Both the position numbers and the translations under genes were made by a program. The notes beneath the pieces are model-generated. The model was given only the letters and a program-made list of their open reading frames with translations, was not told where the DNA came from and ran no database searches. DNA of 64,000 nucleotides. Source: Patescibacteria group bacterium (GTDB taxonomy: Bacteria; Patescibacteriota; Patescibacteriia; UBA1558; S5-K13). Each line of letters opens with the position of its first letter. Within the stretch, counting starts at the first letter, position 1. This document shows positions 1 through 63,962 of this stretch, in pieces. The stretch spans positions 630 to 64,629 of the forward strand of contig JAQUXC010000004.1 of assembly GCA_028692545.1 (NCBI GenBank), written 5' to 3'.

Positions 1-1087
1 GTGTTGGTTTAATATTCTCACACAAGTCCTTGATACTTTTACTCATTCCTGTTCCATATACCAACCTATCATTATCATATTTAGAAATTCCTACAATTGG
101 AATATTTATATTTATTTTCCTGAATAATTTAGAAATGTAATCAACTTGTGGTTTTCCACCGTCTATCATTATCAAATCGGGTCTTTGCCATTCATTATGA
201 TTTAATCTTCTTGAAATTACTTCTTCAAGTGCTCTTTCATCATCCCCTGCTGGTGCAGTTTTTATTTTAAATAATCTGTATTCATTTTTGTTTGCCTCAC
301 CATTTTCAAAAACAACCATTGATCCATATGATTCATGACCTCCAAAATGTGAAATATCATAGCCCTCTATTCTATTTATTTTCTCATTTATATCATCTTC
401 GTTTGTAAGAAGTGATACATCTTGGATATGTTTTAAAAATTTTGCTTTCTCAGGAGATTCTTCCATTAATTTTTTTAATAATCGTTTTTTTTCTCCGGAC
501 AGAAACAAAATAATATTAGAAATATTCTTTTTGTAATCTTTTTTTGATATTTCTGAAATACAAGTTCCTGGACATAATCCAATTTGATAATCAAAACAAG
601 GTTTTCCATTATTTGGAACACATGTGCTATATGGAAATATTCGTCTTATAATTTTTAGTGCATTTTGAATAAGATAAAGTGATTGATAAGGGCCAAATAC
701 TGCAAATTTATTTACAGGAAATTTGTGCAATTCACGTTCTCTTATTAATTTAACTTTTGGAAAATCACTATTTTTATCAATTGCAATGTAGATAAAAGAT
801 CTATTGTCTTTGTCTTTTATATTATATTTTGGCCAATATTTTTTGATATTTTTTGCTTCTAATATAATTGCTTCAAGTAAATTATCTGTTTCAATATATT
901 TAATATCATATGCGAGTGATACCATTTCAGCAATTCTTATATCAATATTTTTTTGAAAGTATTGTGAAACTCTGTTTTTCAAACTTGTTGCACGACCAAC
1001 ATAAAGAATGTGTTTATTTTTATCTATAAAAAAATATACCCCGCTAGATTTAGGAAATTTTTTAATTTTATCTTTTAATTTTGTCAT
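1..1087 (-). CDS. uvrC: Excinuclease ABC subunit C, N-terminal about 360 aa; the C-terminus lies beyond the window start
   Basis: Reverse translation from the ATG at 1087 gives MTKLKDKIKKFPKSSGVYFFIDKNKHILYVGRATSLKNRVSQYF, which is the GIY-YIG motif region, then FGPY...CPGTC...VVFENG...PDLIMIDGG blocks typical of UvrC. The ORF is open to position 1 and is absent from the ORF track because it is truncated. Confidence 0.8.
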   Translation of the reverse strand, partial: MTKLKDKIKKFPKSSGVYFFIDKNKHILYVGRATSLKNRVSQYFQKNIDIRIAEMVSLAYDIKYIETDNLLEAIILEAKNIKKYWPKYNIKDKDNRSFIYIAIDKNSDFPKVKLIRERELHKFPVNKFAVFGPYQSLYLIQNALKIIRRIFPYSTCVPNNGKPCFDYQIGLCPGTCISEISKKDYKKNISNIILFLSGEKKRLLKKLMEESPEKAKFLKHIQDVSLLTNEDDINEKINRIEGYDISHFGGHESYGSMVVFENGEANKNEYRLFKIKTAPAGDDERALEEVISRRLNHNEWQRPDLIMIDGGKPQVDYISKLFRKININIPIVGISKYDNDRLVYGTGMSKSIKDLCENIKPT

Positions 1088-1120
1088 GAATTAATATTAT
1101 AATAAATAGCTAATTTTGAC

Positions 1121-1211: not shown

Positions 1212-1826
1212 ATGAACAAAAATAAAGCCTTATTATTCAAAAATAAATATAGAATTGAATCAATTCGATTAAAAAATTGGGATTATTCTGATCCTGGTTT
1301 TTATTTTATTACCATTTGTATAAAAGATAGAGAAAATATATTTGGTGAAATCATTGATGGAAAAATGGTTTTAAATATATATGGGTATATTGTGAAATAT
1401 TGTTGTCGTGATTTACCAAATCATTATAAAAATTGTATTGTGGATTCATATGTAATAATGCCGAATCATTTCCATGGGATAATACAAATCAAAGATGCGG
1501 TTCGCGTTGGGATGGTTCGCGACGCATTTGTAGAGACGATTCATGAATCGTCTCTACGCGAACCATCCCAACGGGTCCGACGTGAATCGTCCAAATGCAA
1601 ACACAACACAAAACAACGACGTAAAATGTTATTATCAAAAATAATTGGACGGTTCAAAATGCAATCATCCAAAAAAATCAATTTGGTAAATCACGCAATA
1701 TATTTTCGTTGGCAAAAATCATATTACGAATACATAATCAGAAATGAACAATCATTATATAGAATTCGACAATATATAAAAAACAATCCAATAAATTGGG
1801 ATTGCGACAGAAATAATAACAAATAA
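1212..1826 (+). CDS. IS200-like/RAYT-type Y1 (HuH) transposase (COG1943-like) with an in-frame palindromic insert
   Basis: HuH motif MPNHFHGII; C-terminal WQKSYYEYIIRNEQSLYRIRQYIKNNPINW matches the YYDHIIR...YI.NNP..W signature of REP-associated tyrosine transposases. Confidence 0.7.
   Translation: MNKNKALLFKNKYRIESIRLKNWDYSDPGFYFITICIKDRENIFGEIIDGKMVLNIYGYIVKYCCRDLPNHYKNCIVDSYVIMPNHFHGIIQIKDAVRVGMVRDAFVETIHESSLREPSQRVRRESSKCKHNTKQRRKMLLSKIIGRFKMQSSKKINLVNHAIYFRWQKSYYEYIIRNEQSLYRIRQYIKNNPINWDCDRNNNK
1503..1575. repeat. GC-rich compound palindrome inside the RAYT ORF
   Basis: Outer arms cgcgttgggatggttcgcg and cgcgaaccatcccaacggg (17/19 complementary) enclose a perfect 26-nt palindrome tagagacgattcatgaatcgtctcta. 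Translated in frame as VRVGMVRDAFVETIHESSLREPSQRV, about 30 aa extra between the HuH motif and the catalytic Tyr region. Confidence 0.7.
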
Positions 1827-3353: not shown

Positions 3354-3365
3354 TGTGGGCTTATT

Positions 3366-3632
3366 TTAAATTTTAGCTTTATTTAATATATTATCAATTA
3401 TCCAATATTTGTAATTACCAATATTTAAATAATTATATATTTTTGAATCAAATAAGGATTCATAACCTTTTATTTTTAATTCATTTGATAAACTATCTAA
3501 AAATGTTGTCTTGCCTTCTCCCCATTTACCAGAAATGCCAAAAATAAATGATTCATTTTGGATATTATCATAATTTTTTTCTATAATATCTACAACATTT
3601 TTTATAAATTTTTCTCTACTTTTTATTTGCAT
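3366..3632 (-). pseudogene. 88-aa fragment resembling the N-terminus of a KAP-family P-loop NTPase
   Basis: GISGKWGEGKTTFL matches the KAP NTPase Walker A pattern GxxGxWGxGKT. At 88 aa it is far too short for an intact KAP NTPase. Confidence 0.4.
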
Positions 3633-3687
3633 ATATTTACTAATTCATATTTTATCTAATACTAATCTTTATAATATTCTAATTTAC

Positions 3688-6204
3688 CTATTTCTTCAAA
3701 TAACTCTTCAAATATTCCCCAGTCACACTTTTTTCATTTCTAACAATATCTTCAGGTGTTCCATAAGCAATTACACGACCACCATTTTCTCCACCATCAG
3801 GACCCAAGTCAATTATATAATCCATTGATTTTATAACATGCAAATTATGCTCAATAATCAGAATTGTGTTTCCACGTTCTACAAGTTTGTTTAACACGTG
3901 GAGCAACAATTCAATATCATGATAATGAAGTCCTGTTGTGGGCTCATCCAACAAATACAATGTGCGTTTTCCAAGTGTGTTTGTAAGCTCTTTTGCGAGT
4001 TTTATGCGCTGAGCTTCTCCACCTGAAAGAGTTGTTGCTGATTGTCCCAGCTTCAAATATCCAAGTCCAACTTCTATTAGAACTTTTAATTTATCAGTTA
4101 TAAAGTAATTTCCGTCAAAAAGTTTGTATGCCTCATCAATTGTGAGGTCTAGCACATCAGCAATACTATGATTTTTGTATTTTACTTGTAATGTTTCTCT
4201 GTTAAATCTTTTGCCATGACATACTTCACACTCCACAAGTACTGGTGGTAAAAAATGCATTTCAATAAGGTTAAATCCTGCTCCAGAACACGCTTCACAT
4301 CTTCCACCTGCTCGATTGAATGAAAAACGAGATAATGTATATGCTCTTTCACGTGATTCTGGAAGTTCTGCAAAAAATTCTCTAATTGGTGAAAATATTC
4401 CAGTATATGTTGCTGGATTTGATCGTGGAGTTCGACCAATTGGTGATTGATTTATAATTACTAATTTATCAACATATTCTAATCCTTTTATTTCTTTTAC
4501 ATTTTCTAAATTTGGTTTTGCGGGTCTACTCATAATCTTTGAAACATTTTTGTATAACACATCATATATAAGAGATGATTTTCCACTTCCTGAAACTCCA
4601 GTAATACTAACCATACGGCCAAGAGGAATTTCTACATTTACTCCTTTTAGATTATTTGCTTTTGCACCTATAATTTTTATAGCTCCTTTATTTTTCTCAC
4701 GTCGGTGTGCAGGAACTTCGATTTTTCTCTGTCCTCTTAAATATTGCAAAGTCAAAGATTTTTGGAATTTTGATCGCGACGTAGCCGAAGGCGAAGTCGG
4801 ATCAAGTAATTCTAAAGTATTTCCAATTGCCATGACTTCCCCTCCGTGAACTCCAGCAAGAGGTCCAAGATCTACTAAATAATCTGATTCAAGAATAGTT
4901 CTTTCGTCGTGCTCAACAATTATTACAGTATTATTTTTATCGCGTAATGCTTTTAGAGTTTCAATTAATCTGTCAGTGTCTCTTTCATGGAGTCCAATTG
5001 TTGGCTCATCTAAAACATATAGTGTTCGAGAAAGTTGAGATCCAATCTGTGATGATAATCTTATACGTTGTGCTTCTCCACCTGACAATGTTTCTGCTTC
5101 ACGACTAAGTGATAAATAATTCAATCCAACTTTTGATAAAAACTCATATCTATTTATAATTTGATTAATTACCAAATCAGCAATTGCCTTTTGTCGCTTT
5201 GTCATTTTGTCTTGGAAGTGTTTGAAAAATTCAATTGCCTTATCAATAGACAAATCACAAACTTCTGCAATATTCTTTTTGTTTATTTTTACTGACAATG
5301 CTTCATCACGTAATCTTCTACCATTACATTTGTCACATACTTTTCCTTTGAAACCAATTTTTCCCAAACCAGAACATTTTTCACATGCACCATGAGGAGA
5401 ATTAAATGAAAATAATCTTGGCTCTACTTCTGGAAATGAAAAACTATCATTTGGACAAGTCCAGTTTGACGATAATAAAAATTCTTCTTTGTTTATTTGA
5501 ACAACTACAAGACCTTTACTATATGCTAGTGAACTTTCTACTGCTTCAAATAATCTCGTTTCATCAGTTAGCATTACCTTATCAACTACCAAATCAATGC
5601 TGTGCTTTTTCTTTGGGTCTAATACAATTTTTTCTCGAAGTGAATGCATTTTTCCATCAACTCTAACTTCTCCATAGCCAAGTTTTAGATAATCATAAAG
5701 CATTTGATAATATTCACCTTTTCTGTCCATGACAATTGGTGAAAGTATTACTGCAAAGTCCTTATCACCTACTTTTTTAGAAATAATAATATCTATCATT
5801 TCCTCAAGAGATAATTTTTCTATTTTTGTTCCGCAAAGTGGACAAAATACTTCACCAACTCTCGCATAAAGAATTCTTAAGTAATCATAAATATCAGTAA
5901 GTGTTCCAACTGTAGACCTTGGATTATGTGATAGAGCTTTTTGGTCAATAGAAATTGATGGAGCAAGTCCAATTATTTCATCAACATCAGCGGGTTTTTT
6001 TTGTCCCAAAAATTGTCTCATGTATGGTGAAAGTGACTCAACATATTGACGCTGACCTTCAGCAAAAATTGTATCAAAAGCAAGAGACGATTTCCCACTT
6101 CCAGAAAGTCCTGTTATTACTGTTAATTTGTTGTGCGGAATTTCTAAATCTATGTTTTTTAGATTATGCATTCTCGCACCATGTATAATTATTTTTTCTT
6201 CCAT
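3688..6204 (-). CDS. uvrA: Excinuclease ABC subunit A
   Basis: Two ABC modules ([14 protein letters not shown] and [13 protein letters not shown]), LSGGEAQR signature repeats, and Zn-finger Cys clusters. Confidence 0.95.
4772..4803. repeat. GC-rich palindromic insert, in frame, in the uvrA inter-domain linker
   Basis: gatcgcgacgtagccgaaggcgaagtcggatc encodes [11 protein letters not shown] between ...GNTLELL and [11 protein letters not shown]. The E. coli linker is shorter here (recalled from memory). Confidence 0.5.
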
Positions 6205-16948: not shown

Positions 16949-17037
16949 AGATTTTATTTTTTTATGTTTTTAATTAAAAATAGTAGCTATATTCTCTCAT
17001 TTTTTAGAATTAAAATCAAGTATACAAATAAATACAA

Positions 17038-17180
17038 TGCCAATACCTGCCTGCCCGCCTGCCTGCCGGTAGGCAGGGCAGGCAGGTACAAATGATATAC
17101 CAATTATACAAATGACATTAGTATTATTGGTATAAATTAGTCCGCCTTGGCTTTGCCGTTAGGCGAGACGAGTATATTTA
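17038..17180. repeat. Intergenic repeat element, copy B, interrupted by two GC-rich palindromic inserts
   Basis: Core caaatgatataccaattatacaaatgacattagtattattggtataaattag matches copy A. The inserts are cctgcctgcccgcctgcctgccggtaggcagggcaggcagg (about 17046-17088) and tccgccttggctttgccgttaggcgagacgag (about 17142-17176). Confidence 0.5.
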
Positions 17181-21831: not shown

Positions 21832-22017
21832 ATAAAATAAAAATCAGCTTTGCGAGCTGATATTGTAAAACAAAAATAGCTCGCAACTTATCCGAGATTG
21901 TTATTATTATTTAGTTTTGCTATTTTTATTATCATATAAATATAATAACACAAAAATAAATAAATGCAATACACATATTTACTATTATATATTTATATAT
22001 TATAATTATTTTTATCC

Positions 22018-22079
22018 TTCGGGGATCGTCTAATGCTCGCCCGCATCGCTACGCGAAGCGTTGCGAGCGGGGTAGGACA
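22018..22079 (+). pseudogene. Truncated duplicate of the tRNA-Gln 5' part (acceptor/D-arm, about 26 nt) split by a 35-nt GC-rich palindromic insert
   Basis: ttcggggatcgtctaatg[ctcgcccgcatcgctacgcgaagcgttgcgagcgg]ggtaggaca matches 22343-22368 of the intact tRNA on both sides of the insert. Confidence 0.55.
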
Positions 22080-22084
22080 AAATT

Positions 22085-22333
22085 ATGTATTATACATATG
22101 TTTTAAAAAGTAAAAAAGATGATAAACTATATATTGGTTATACTAAAGATTTAGATAATAGATTCAAAGAGCATAATAATGGATTAGTTTTTTCAACTAG
22201 GAATAGAAAGCCATTTGAAATAATATATTTTGAAGCATGTTTAGTTAAAAAAGATGCTATAAAAAGAGAAAAGCAATTAAAAACTGGTTTTGGAAGAACT
22301 TACTTAAATAGAAGGTTGAGTAATTTAAAATAA
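22085..22333 (+). CDS. GIY-YIG domain nuclease (about 82 aa, stand-alone)
   Basis: YTYVLKS...DKLYIGYTKDLDNRFKEHNNG...FEIIYFE...REKQLK. Confidence 0.8.
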   Translation: MYYTYVLKSKKDDKLYIGYTKDLDNRFKEHNNGLVFSTRNRKPFEIIYFEACLVKKDAIKREKQLKTGFGRTYLNRRLSNLK

Positions 22334-22342
22334 AATACCATT

Positions 22343-22416
22343 CGGGGATCGTCTAATGGTAGGACAGCGGGTTCTGGTCCCGTCAATCTGGGTTCGATTC
22401 CTAGTCCCCGAGCCAT
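22343..22416 (+). tRNA. tRNA-Gln (anticodon CTG)
   Basis: TCGGGGATCGTCTAATGGTAGGACAGCGGGTTCTGGTCCCGTCAATCTGGGTTCGATTCCTAGTCCCCGAGCCA. Anticodon stem GCGGG/CCCGT, loop TTCTGGT, T-loop GTTCGATTC. Confidence 0.85.
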
Positions 22417-63192: not shown

Positions 63193-63221
63193 CACGTCCG
63201 ACGTTGCCAACGTCGGACGTG
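63193..63221. repeat. REP-like palindrome cacgtccgacgttg-c-caacgtcggacgtg (5' flank of the RAYT gene)
   Basis: 14-bp perfect arms; seen directly. Confidence 0.7.
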
Positions 63222-63317
63222 TGGTATATAGTATTGACTTTGATATATTCTGAAGTAAAATATAAACATGGGTCGCAAAAGCGATCTTTTTGTTTTAATA
63301 AATAAAGAAAAGCGATT

Positions 63318-63926
63318 ATGATAAGGAATATATTATCAAACAATATTTATCATGTTTATAATAGAGGAACTGAAAAAAGAAGAATTTTTTATAATCAAAG
63401 GGATTATAATTATTTTTTGAGTAGAATGTTTTTTTATAAAGATCAGTTTAAAGTAAAAATTTTATCTTATGCAATATTACCAAACCATTTTCATTTTTTA
63501 CTAGAAGAACCAACGTCGGACGTTGTTAACGTCCGACGTTGCAGTTACAAACCAAATACTAATCAATATCATGGATCAAAAATATCAAAGTTTATATCTA
63601 TTTTATTAAATTCTTATACAAAATATTTCAATAATAGACGAGAGCATTCTGGGAGAATTTTTCAAGGACCATTTAAATCTAAACTTATAAGTAGTGATAC
63701 TTATTTGCAAACAGTTTTTGTTTATGTAAATTTAAATCCAATAAAGCATGGGGTTGTAAATAATATAAATGACTGGCTTTATACTTCCCATCATTATTTT
63801 TCAGATAAATTTAATTCTGGAATAGTAGATAGTAATGATTTTATAGATAAAACTATCTATAAATCTATTATCAAAAATTATAAAGATAAAATAGAAAATA
63901 ATGACGTAGATTTGGAATTTGATTAG
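63318..63926 (+). CDS. IS200-like/RAYT-family Y1 transposase flanked by REP-like palindromes
   Basis: HuH motif LPNHFHFLL; GRIFQGPFKSKLISSDTYL...YVNLNPIKHG...W block typical of COG1943. Confidence 0.7.
   Translation: MIRNILSNNIYHVYNRGTEKRRIFYNQRDYNYFLSRMFFYKDQFKVKILSYAILPNHFHFLLEEPTSDVVNVRRCSYKPNTNQYHGSKISKFISILLNSYTKYFNNRREHSGRIFQGPFKSKLISSDTYLQTVFVYVNLNPIKHGVVNNINDWLYTSHHYFSDKFNSGIVDSNDFIDKTIYKSIIKNYKDKIENNDVDLEFD
63511..63541. repeat. REP-like palindrome inside the RAYT ORF (caacgtcggacgtt-gtt-aacgtccgacgttg)
   Basis: Same arms as the flanking copies; translated in frame as PTSDVVNVRRCS immediately after the HuH motif. Confidence 0.7.
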
Positions 63927-63928
63927 TC

Positions 63929-63962
63929 ACCAACGTCCGACGTTGGCAACGTCGGACGTGGA
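63929..63962. repeat. REP-like palindrome 3' of the RAYT gene (acgtccgacgttg-g-caacgtcggacgt)
   Basis: Begins 3 nt after the RAYT stop codon. Confidence 0.65.

Follow-up and report, generated by a model that had tools for sequence, protein, structure and literature searches.

A GTAG-footed palindrome, probably a double-foot REP, lies in frame within a subclass 2.4-like tnpAREP gene of a Patescibacteria genome

The DNA analysed here is a 64,000-nt stretch from a Patescibacteria group bacterium (contig JAQUXC010000004.1), hereafter called the window and numbered from its first letter, which has a GC content of 26.7% and contains two genes of the tnpAREP/RAYT type (repeat-associated tyrosine transposases), RAYT1 near its start and RAYT2 near its end. 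RAYT1 carries, shortly after the codons for its HUH motif, a GC-rich compound hairpin whose core resembles a repetitive extragenic palindrome (REP), and this hairpin is the subject of the present analysis. A preliminary description, made from the letters of the stretch, had reported a GC-rich hairpin of 73 nt inserted in frame after the HUH motif, and such a hairpin was indeed located at 1503-1575 within the open reading frame (ORF) 1212-1826. The features of the gene and of the hairpin, with the basis on which each was assigned, are as follows.

1212-1826, plus strand: RAYT1, a tnpAREP/RAYT gene encoding a subclass 2.4-like HUH/Y1 protein of 204 aa (ORF, profiles and fold)
1467-1475, plus strand: HUH motif H86-F87-H88, within MPNHFHG at 1458-1478 (translation and alignment of 40 sequences)
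1491-1631, plus strand: variable beta3-alpha3 linker, residues 94-140 (alignment and AlphaFold2)
1503-1575, no strand: compound hairpin of 73 nt, made up of an outer stem, a 5' bulge and an inner REP (inverted-repeat search, RNA and DNA folds)
1505-1521, no strand: left outer arm CGTTGGGATGGTTCGCG, 17/17 complementary to 1557-1573
1522-1529, no strand: asymmetric 8-nt bulge ACGCATTT (sequence; unpaired in RNA and DNA folds)
1530-1557, no strand: inner perfect palindrome GTAGAGACGATTCATGAATCGTCTCTAC of 28 nt (14+14), a double-foot GTAG REP (inverted-repeat search)
1557-1573, no strand: right outer arm CGCGAACCATCCCAACG (inverted-repeat search)
1632-1688, plus strand: helix alpha3/alphaC LSKIIGRFKMQSSKKINLV (residues 141-159, helical in the AlphaFold2 model)
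1710-1715, plus strand: WQ motif W167 Q168, part of the GTAG-contact region (alignment)
1773-1790, plus strand: Y motif YIKNNP, with Y188 as the putative catalytic tyrosine (alignment)

The NHFH tetrapeptide of RAYT1 is encoded at 1464-1475 as part of a longer stretch that reads MPNHFHGIIQI, and the spacing between H88 and Y188 is 100 aa. P84, H86 and H88 were invariant in the alignment of 40 homologues, in which variation of length and sequence was restricted to residues 94-140. The sole Pfam match was to PF01797 (Y1_Tnp), which spans residues 137-192 with 27.5 bits, over the gathering threshold of 23, and no Pfam domain was found over the insert. The NCBIfam model NF047646 (REP_Tyr_transpos) was matched in two stretches flanking the insert with 60.1 bits (E = 2e-16), which is short of its equivalog cut-off of 80 bits because the insert splits the match; RAYT1 is taken as a relative that this model does not name. 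A protein identical to RAYT1 is known from 3 contigs under the annotation of a Patescibacteria transposase, and 4056 database proteins matched RAYT1 at E <= 1e-5. The AlphaFold2 model, built from the 40 homologues, has a predicted template modelling score (pTM) of 0.70 and a confident core of 107 residues with a predicted local distance difference test score (pLDDT) of at least 90, and residues 98-136 are predicted to be disordered (pLDDT <50). Foldseek matched this model to Escherichia coli TnpAREP (PDB ID: 4ER8; E = 7e-6), to which the alignment profile was also matched (E = 1e-4), and to the IS608 and ISDra2 transposases; the PDB entries matched were 4ER8, 2XM3 and 2VJV, at E ~1e-5. The counterparts of the GTAG-contacting residues W94, Q95, E100 and R104 of the E. 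coli protein are W167, Q168, E173 and R177 in RAYT1. By its position in the modelled fold, and not by residue alignment, alpha3 of RAYT1 would correspond to the helix by which E. coli TnpAREP contacts the REP and to the alphaC helix of Quentin et al. (2018).

The arms of the hairpin cover 1505-1573 and one further pair brings its extent to 1503-1575. The outer arms described in the preliminary account are real, although they pair at 18/19 positions, or perfectly at 17/17, and not at 17/19 as first counted; the perfect inner palindrome is likewise present, with a length of 28 nt and not 26 nt. This inner 28-mer is translated in frame as VETIHESSL and agrees with the definition of a GTAG-tagged REP as a palindrome of 20-40 bp with GTAG at one end (Di Nocera et al., 2013). 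The GC content of the hairpin is 55%, against 26% in the remainder of the gene, and by GC content the region ranks in the top three of all 80-nt windows in the 64 kb, a level that is otherwise reached by tRNA genes among others. Folding as RNA, a check proposed in the preliminary description for the mRNA, yielded -55.9 kcal/mol (z = -7.0) for the segment and folding as DNA -37.2 kcal/mol (z = -7.65), with 0/200 shuffles as stable in either case. Neither the 28-mer nor the outer arm occurs a second time in the window (chance expectation 0 to 0.01), and no convincing copy was found with up to 3 mismatches allowed. In a generic scan of the window for GT[AG]G-footed hairpins, no GTAG hairpin besides the internal one had a stem as long as 8 bp, the scan otherwise returning three 7-bp matches at chance level, far from the gene. 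An origin of the palindrome by chance, or as an assembly artefact in an AT-rich genome, could draw only on the fact that AT-rich inverted repeats of low complexity are generally plentiful in this part of the window. Against it stand the zero expected matches to the 28-mer, the 0/200 shuffles that fold as well, the conservation of the hairpin structure in independently assembled related genomes (L081, L085) and the occurrence of the identical protein on 3 contigs, and its probability is accordingly regarded as negligible.

Hairpins in the linker were surveyed in a non-random set of 80 homologous loci from more than 15 phyla, taken as the best tblastn matches among 410, of which 78 passed a motif filter and, together with the window gene, gave 79 genes. 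The hairpin detector accepted Watson-Crick pairs only, with no more than 1 mismatch and with a loop of 10 nt at most. The mean best hairpin score was 10.9 in the linker against 5.9 in each of the N-terminal and C-terminal coding parts, and a stem of at least 8 bp was present in the linker of 77% of the genes, in the N-terminal part of 9% and in the C-terminal part of 6%; 18/79 homologues were without such a stem in the linker. The segment is thus palindromic in the DNA of most homologues, and the case that would have spoken against the preliminary description, in which homologues universally carry an ordinary non-palindromic segment there, was not encountered. That description had recommended a search for insert-free alleles, and alleles with a linker of insert-free length do exist: 5/79 genes have such minimal linkers (16-21 residues as measured here). 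Most linker hairpins have a 5' GTAG foot, and many are palindromes of 28-29 nt with the form GTAG[AG]G[AG]C...G[TC]C[TC]CTAC. Across 21 distinct 28-nt variants, 99% of positions were paired and both-sided changes were seen in 11/14 pairs; the zero count of one-sided changes is biased, as the finder takes Watson-Crick pairs only, and the use of G-U pairs as a test of RNA against DNA was dropped on the same ground. Repeat expansions within the linker loop were present in L013, L029, L043, L073 and L076, and the linker peptide STEIHKD of L004 appears to be a decayed REP copy. The position of the hairpin within the linker, its copy number and its orientation all differ among homologues, and the internal REP is repeated in the flanks of 25/61 homologue loci, the other 36/61 having no flanking copy.

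The same DNA was found to be read in different frames. The palindrome GTAGAGACGTTGCATGCAACGTCTCTAC is translated as VETLHATSL in L008 and L021 and as RDVACNVST in L050, with a one-mismatch variant translated as DVACNVST in L017, and GTAGGGGCACGGCATGCCGTGCCCCTAC is translated as VGARHAVPL in L006 and L009 and as RGTACRAPT in L080; it is therefore the nucleotide palindrome that is conserved, and not the peptide. The GTAG foot was in codon phase 0 in 32 genes, in phase 1 in 10 and in phase 2 in 0, because phase 2 would read the TAG of GTAG as a stop. These observations bear on the alternative that the segment is a functional protein insertion domain of 30-45 residues in which the palindrome is incidental. 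The peptide V-E/G-T/A-I-H-E-S/L-S/P-L does recur in the linkers of many homologues in the 40-homologue alignment, which speaks for this alternative. However, the reading of the same DNA in two frames effectively refutes it, the segment is predicted to be disordered and has no Pfam domain, and perfect 28-nt palindromes would not be expected from selection on a peptide, given the degeneracy of the code. The peptide variants ET..SS and GA..LP are moreover those expected from compensatory stem changes, as judged by back-translation of the peptides, the covariation itself having been measured on the DNA variants. A protein domain is thus considered extremely unlikely.

A scan of metagenomes for exact matches found the 28-mer in 31 contigs, with 3 copies within a RAYT gene and 27 contigs without a RAYT gene in the fetched stretch. 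For the trait 'dispersed, mostly extragenic' of the GTAG REP superfamily (Di Nocera et al., 2013, BMC Genomics 14:522), the window thus offers one copy and the 31 contigs a 28-mer that is dispersed and lies mostly outside RAYT genes. An outer perfect stem extension of at least 4 bp, and of up to 17 bp, accompanied 13/32 copies of the 28-mer. Among the extragenic copies of L086-L116 the arm sequence was different at every site and reached 17 bp (for example in L113, L114 and L107), which suggests either outward growth of the palindrome by fold-back priming or template switching, or insertion of the REP at the centre of existing palindromes. As far as these sequences indicate, the compound, nested structure found in RAYT1 is typical of this REP.

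As a separate observation on one of these contigs (Ga0307992_1001873, L086), five double-foot or GTAG-footed REPs of four types are gathered within 700 nt at 3355-4039, with apical sequences GGTTTTAAACC, GATTCATGAATC (twice) and GCAAAATTTTGC. The cluster adjoins a fragment of a RAYT C-terminus, and a full RAYT gene 6 kb away has another REP type internally.

The preliminary description had also offered a regulatory mRNA hairpin, which in a fuller form would be a mid-ORF stem that slows translation or forms an RNase site and so limits a potentially harmful nuclease. Such a role would fit the very stable RNA fold (-55.9 kcal/mol, z = -7.0), the location of the hairpin between the HUH half and the Tyr half of the catalytic apparatus and the effects of REPs elsewhere on mRNA stability and translation that are reported as background in the cited REP literature. 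However, Rfam 15 gave only tRNAs in the window at gathering thresholds, with no match at the hairpin, and at E <= 1 only matches to miRNA precursors of 20-24 bits, far under cut-offs of 90-180 and regarded as spurious. Both strands of the symmetric element carry GTAG, an arrangement that would serve no purpose for RNA, and in other genomes the same 28-mer is mostly extragenic (outside RAYT in at least 27 of the metagenome contigs). The single mismatches observed in L100 and L017 are C-A or A-C on the sense strand and not G-U, and the inconstant position, copy number and orientation of the hairpin among homologues also argue against a regulatory role in the mRNA, which is left unsupported and is judged improbable.

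The properties of RAYT1 were compared with those of TnpAREP subclass 2.4, which is equivalent to RAYT Group 4 (Quentin et al., 2018, BMC Genomics 19:475; Bertels et al., 2017, GBE 9:2110). Members of the subclass have the HuH motif NH[IFV]H, the motifs WQ and YIxNNP, a mean length of 194 aa, a beta3-alphaC insertion that varies in both length and sequence and a median HuH-Y distance of 88 aa, and the conservation of W94/Q95/R104 has been described (Quentin et al., 2018). Their REPs are 'long' or 'double foot', with 5' GT[AG]G and 3' C[TC]AC, and are often intragenic and in frame; most subclass 2.4 genes have REPs within 1 kb, and the insertion loop was suggested to be peripheral, with insertions of little impact on activity (Quentin et al., 2018). 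Double-foot subclass 2.4 REPs of 28 nt, such as GTAGAGACGCACGGCCGTGCGTCTCTAC, are listed in Table S1 of the same study, from which the RAYT1 variant (apical GATTCATGAATC) is absent. RAYT1 shares with the subclass the NHFH, WQ and YIKNNP motifs, its length of 204 aa, the Y1-HUH fold, the variable beta3-alphaC insert and the in-frame double-foot REP, and both are single-copy genes (RAYT1 within the window) with conserved neighbours; the assignment of RAYT1 to the subclass rests on these motif signatures and this architecture. It differs in its host, an AT-rich genome (26.7% GC) from the Patescibacteria, which those surveys do not name, in the lack of flanking or dispersed REPs in 64 kb, which most but not all subclass 2.4 genes have, and in the nesting of its REP in a further 17-bp stem with a bulge. 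RAYT1 is thus a further example of an arrangement described in 2018 for subclass 2.4, and not a new phenomenon.

It is therefore considered probable, and with good confidence, that 1503-1575 is a GTAG double-foot REP nested in a longer imperfect palindrome and held in frame in the disordered beta3-alpha3 loop of a subclass 2.4 tnpAREP. A frame-preserving insertion at a structural hotspot, as suggested in the preliminary description, agrees with the published account of the subclass and with the pLDDT of <50 in the loop; what that description missed is that the insert is a GTAG-footed REP of the enzyme's predicted substrate class, and that nearly the whole subfamily has one there. REPs of this kind are single-stranded DNA (ssDNA) hairpins that are bound and cut by RAYT/TnpAREP enzymes, and the REP of RAYT1 is predicted to belong to the cognate substrate class of the enzyme. 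The REP would have entered the gene, and would be kept current there, through the same activity by which REPs are seeded around tnpAREP genes, namely ssDNA cleavage with strand transfer or copying, and gene conversion or template switching between the arms of the palindrome may assist its upkeep. Its persistence at this site only would reflect the presence, in a small protein, of one loop that tolerates 10-80 extra residues, and it would persist in codon phases 0 and 1 only, phase 2 giving the TAG stop; a survivorship filter made up of a permissive loop, a stop-free phase and a length that is a multiple of three would partly explain the site. The ribosome would read through the hairpin to produce a floppy surface loop, and any function of the hairpin would be exerted at the level of DNA, as a resident cognate site of the enzyme, and not as an mRNA switch.

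The second gene, RAYT2, has a comparable arrangement with a palindrome of its own, as listed below.

63318-63926, plus strand: RAYT2, the second RAYT gene, subclass 2.1-like with NHFH, FQ and YVNLNP (ORF, profiles and motifs)
63511-63541, no strand: internal in-frame palindrome CAACGTCGGACGTTgttAACGTCCGACGTTG, directly after the HUH strand (repeat search)
63193-63222, no strand: upstream copy of the palindrome, an inverted pair, ~110 nt upstream (repeat search)
63931-63960, no strand: downstream copy of the palindrome, just past the stop codon (repeat search)

The earlier claim that both RAYT genes carry an in-frame palindrome at the homologous site therefore stands, with the RAYT2 palindrome directly after the HUH strand. 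In RAYT2, LPNHFHFLLEEP is followed directly by the palindrome CAACGTCGGACGTTgttAACGTCCGACGTTG, after LLEEP, and the arm is CAACGTCGGACGTT. The three-site layout of palindromes was found in seven more Patescibacteria loci (L117, L119, L121, L122, L124, L125 and L126), and the lineage-specific cores of the RAYT2 family include CCAACCTCGAAGGTTGG, CGACCTCGCAGGTCG, CACCCCGGGGGTG, CGACCCTCAGGGTCG, TAACCCCTGGGGTTA, CAAYCTCGCAGGTTG and ACCCGCCGGGTG. The internal copy matches the flanking copies of its own lineage, and the three copies therefore evolve in concert. P0180 (L127), a distant RAYT2 homologue without the insertion, has flanking hairpins only. The 2.1-like Patescibacteria clade numbers 921 proteins; no typical REP is listed for subclass 2.1 (Quentin et al., 2018), and no description of the concerted three-site arrangement of the RAYT2 type was found in the literature compared. 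An assignment of the RAYT2 palindrome as a 'CGTC-tagged' REP was considered and found to be unsupported, the cores CCTCGAAGG, CCTCGCAGG and CCCCGGGGG of homologous loci being without CGTC. Upstream of the start codon, at a distance of ~45 nt, the RAYT2 family shows a small GC hairpin with a T-run behind it (GGTCGC...GCGAC TTTTT), which recalls the read-through-blocking hairpin upstream of IS200 tnpA. The leader GAAAAGCGATT stands directly before the ATG of both genes (1196-1211 and 63302-63317) and is conserved in both RAYT families, being also present in the upstream regions of L082, L085, L117, L119, L121 and L125 that were examined.

The conservation of the REP in RAYT1 was compared with that of the third codon positions around it, given here for the N-terminal part and for alpha3 with the C-terminal part respectively. 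Between L081 and RAYT1 the REP is identical at 28/28 positions and the third positions at 81% and 75%; for L085 the values are 26/28, with compensatory changes (C-G to T-A), against 66% and 69%, and for L100 they are 27/28 against 57% and 54%. The outer stem is also kept in L081, where one A-T pair is replaced by G-C in a compensatory change and one position is mismatched. The homologue P0004 has a mosaic relation to RAYT1, with which it shares 91% identity over residues 1-93 and 92% over residues 153-204 but 12% over residues 94-152. In its centre P0004 has two GTAG REPs that form an inverted pair and belong to another type (VEMGFKPISDAGYKP); its alpha3 also differs, with YSLFEMIRGFKTFSS instead of MLLSKIIGRFKMQSS in RAYT1. 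Judged from this sequence comparison, the REP and the adjacent predicted DNA-binding helix are swapped as one central cassette between orthologues. A single REP-mediated crossover was ruled out as the source of such mosaics by the presence of two breakpoints, at the start of the linker and after alpha3, and the mosaic tract looks like a conversion tract between conserved flanks. Over 67 genes, and with the rest of the protein controlled for, the hairpin type was correlated with the alpha3 type (partial rho 0.235; 0/500 permutations as high), against partial correlations of 0.08 and 0.05 with the N-terminal and C-terminal parts. This association would look like the pattern expected of a 'substrate plus reader' cassette, and physical linkage alone could also explain it.

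Several points weigh against a nested REP of the published kind as a complete account of 1503-1575. The window has no flanking or other GTAG REP beside the internal one, nor was a further GTAG REP found in the 7-10 kb around four related RAYT genes (L081-L085), and therefore no local source for re-insertion is visible. The outer 17-bp arms and the 8-nt bulge are left unaccounted for by a REP, two possibilities being that the REP was inserted into the loop of an older hairpin or that the palindrome grew outward by fold-back or template switching. The GTAG-contacting residue H101 of the E. coli enzyme is a Tyr in RAYT1 (YYEYIIR), where homologues have His. Finally, the REP is far better conserved than the neighbouring codons, when a pure passenger should decay; either selection or arm-to-arm correction would then be required. 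Together with the concerted evolution and the cassette swap, this conservation speaks against a simple neutral passenger as the full explanation, and the REP could be maintained by selection, by gene conversion with other copies or by template-switch self-correction. The last of these is an established process for quasipalindromes.

A stronger alternative would have the internal REP kept by selection as a functional cis site which, together with alpha3, forms an exchangeable specificity cassette. Possible roles are autoregulation, through self-binding or self-cleavage of the ssDNA hairpin, or a master copy that keeps enzyme and REP together in vertical or horizontal transfer. Evidence in line with it includes the excess conservation of the REP over third codon positions in L081, L085 and L100, its standing as the sole GTAG REP in 64 kb and in the fetched flanks of L081-L085, the joint swap of REP and alpha3 in P0004, the partial rho of 0.235 between hairpin and alpha3, the contact of alpha3 with the REP in E. 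coli (Corneloup et al., 2021) and the unrelated RAYT2 family, in which 8/8 loci keep an internal copy that matches their own flanking palindromes. However, the hairpin is dispensable, to judge from the minimal linkers or the lack of a clear hairpin in some homologues (18/79 without a stem of at least 8 bp), physical linkage would be enough to give the association with alpha3, template-switch correction or gene conversion with other copies can keep a palindrome perfect in the absence of selection, and recent re-insertion explains sequence identity in the REP-rich genomes sampled. Maintenance as a cis site is accordingly thought unlikely. The broader proposal that an intragenic REP and alpha3 form a maintained 'substrate plus reader' unit exchanged between RAYT lineages, with the same solution reached in two RAYT classes, is put forward tentatively and is likewise doubted; if it were true, in streamlined genomes the gene may carry the sole copy of its own substrate, leading to self-targeting, for example as autoregulation or as gene-templated homogenisation of REPs.

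The nested REP in a tnpAREP loop, which is the reading preferred here, was further set against three other published systems. E. coli TnpAREP, whose structure with a REP hairpin is PDB 4ER8, belongs to subclass 2.2 or Group 2 (Messing et al., 2012; Corneloup et al., 2021), and its alpha3 is a conserved DNA-binding helix that touches the stem and the bulge of the REP (Corneloup et al., 2021). It has in common with RAYT1 the Y1-HUH fold, the GTAG guide tetranucleotide at the foot of the hairpin and an alpha3 after the HUH strand. However, the E. coli REPs lie beside the gene and are scattered in hundreds of copies, with none inside that gene, and are bulged, imperfect and single-footed, whereas the REP of RAYT1 is intragenic, perfect and double-footed; the E. 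coli protein also has a C-terminal tail that is absent in RAYT1, besides the replacement of H101 by Tyr. In-frame palindromic repeats within genes are known as the Rickettsia palindromic elements and as intragenic GTAG/CGTC REPs (Ogata et al., 2000, in Di Nocera et al., 2013). Like the insert of RAYT1, these are in-frame palindromes that add 10-30 residues and are presumably tolerated in a surface loop, but their host genes are unrelated to the enzyme of the repeat (uvrA, dnaE, polA and others) and their sites vary by gene, whereas the host gene RAYT1 encodes the predicted cognate enzyme and the site is constant across the protein subclass. The TnpA proteins of the IS200/IS605 family (IS608, ISDra2) have the same fold as RAYT1 with a catalytic HUH and Tyr, and they, like the REP enzymes, recognise imperfect ssDNA hairpins with a 5' guide tetranucleotide. 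The hairpins of IS608 and ISDra2 are found outside the ORF, where they mark the ends of a mobile element present in multiple copies, whereas RAYT1 is single-copy in the window and its neighbours are constant in related genomes. In the literature compared, no account was found of a sole REP copy in 64 kb, of REP conservation above that of the codons or of a swap of REP and alpha3 as a cassette.

The case of RAYT1 extends the observation of in-frame REPs in subclass 2.4 to an AT-rich Patescibacteria genome, in which a GC-rich REP stands out and is apparently the only copy nearby. The conservation of this REP, its exchange together with a helix and the repetition of the arrangement in RAYT2 may mean that the published explanation by neutral insertion is incomplete. 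The function of RAYTs and the dissemination of REPs are poorly understood, and an enzyme gene carrying its sole substrate, if true, would offer a clean model in which the role of RAYTs could be tested.

RAYT1 is adjoined by uvrC (1-1088, minus strand), with uvrA a few kb away (3688-6204, minus strand). A RAYT gene is also found beside uvrC in three related genomes (L081, L082 and L084), although in L082 uvrC lies on the opposite side of the RAYT gene and the two are convergent. The shared neighbourhood indicates vertical inheritance of RAYT1, and the adjacency to uvrC as such may be a coincidence, but an excess of intragenic REPs in repair genes, uvr among them, was noted by Di Nocera et al. 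(2013). Between uvrC and RAYT1 lies one further palindrome.

1121-1156, no strand: AT-rich palindrome TATATCCTGTGAGATGATATTATCTCACAGGATATA of 36 nt, immediately 5' of a -35-like TTGACA and not a GTAG REP (repeat and promoter scans)

This palindrome is present in L081 with a compensatory change (CCTGTGAG/CTCACAGG to CCCGTGAG/CTCACGGG) and is precisely absent in L084, and is therefore a separate small palindromic insertion. It was ruled out as a flanking REP or terminal inverted repeat of RAYT1, as it has no GTAG foot and no downstream partner and is a separate indel. Further copies, which the preliminary description had proposed to look for with the palindrome placed at 1121-1154, yielded none that was convincing in the window with up to 3 mismatches allowed. 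A sigma-70 scan placed TTGACA-16 nt-TAAGAT just downstream of 1121-1156, the total number of matches being no higher than in shuffles of the AT-rich region.

Two features elsewhere in the window were recorded in passing. An isolated intergenic palindrome at 17037-17092 (TACCTGCCTGCCCGCCTGCCTGCCGGTAGGCAGGGCAGGCAGGTA) is among the most GC-rich spots of the window and is unrelated in sequence to both RAYT palindromes. At 22016-22334 there is a partial duplicate of the 5' part of tRNA-Gln (TTCGGGGATCGTCTAATG...GGTAGGAC), broken by a GC-rich hairpin, and a small ORF at 22086-22334 with a GIY-YIG-like appearance (YIGYT...FKEHN) lies just upstream of the intact tRNA-Gln at 22342-22415; the segment 22016-22334 may represent a small mobile element of the GIY-YIG type, for which the tRNA gene was the target.

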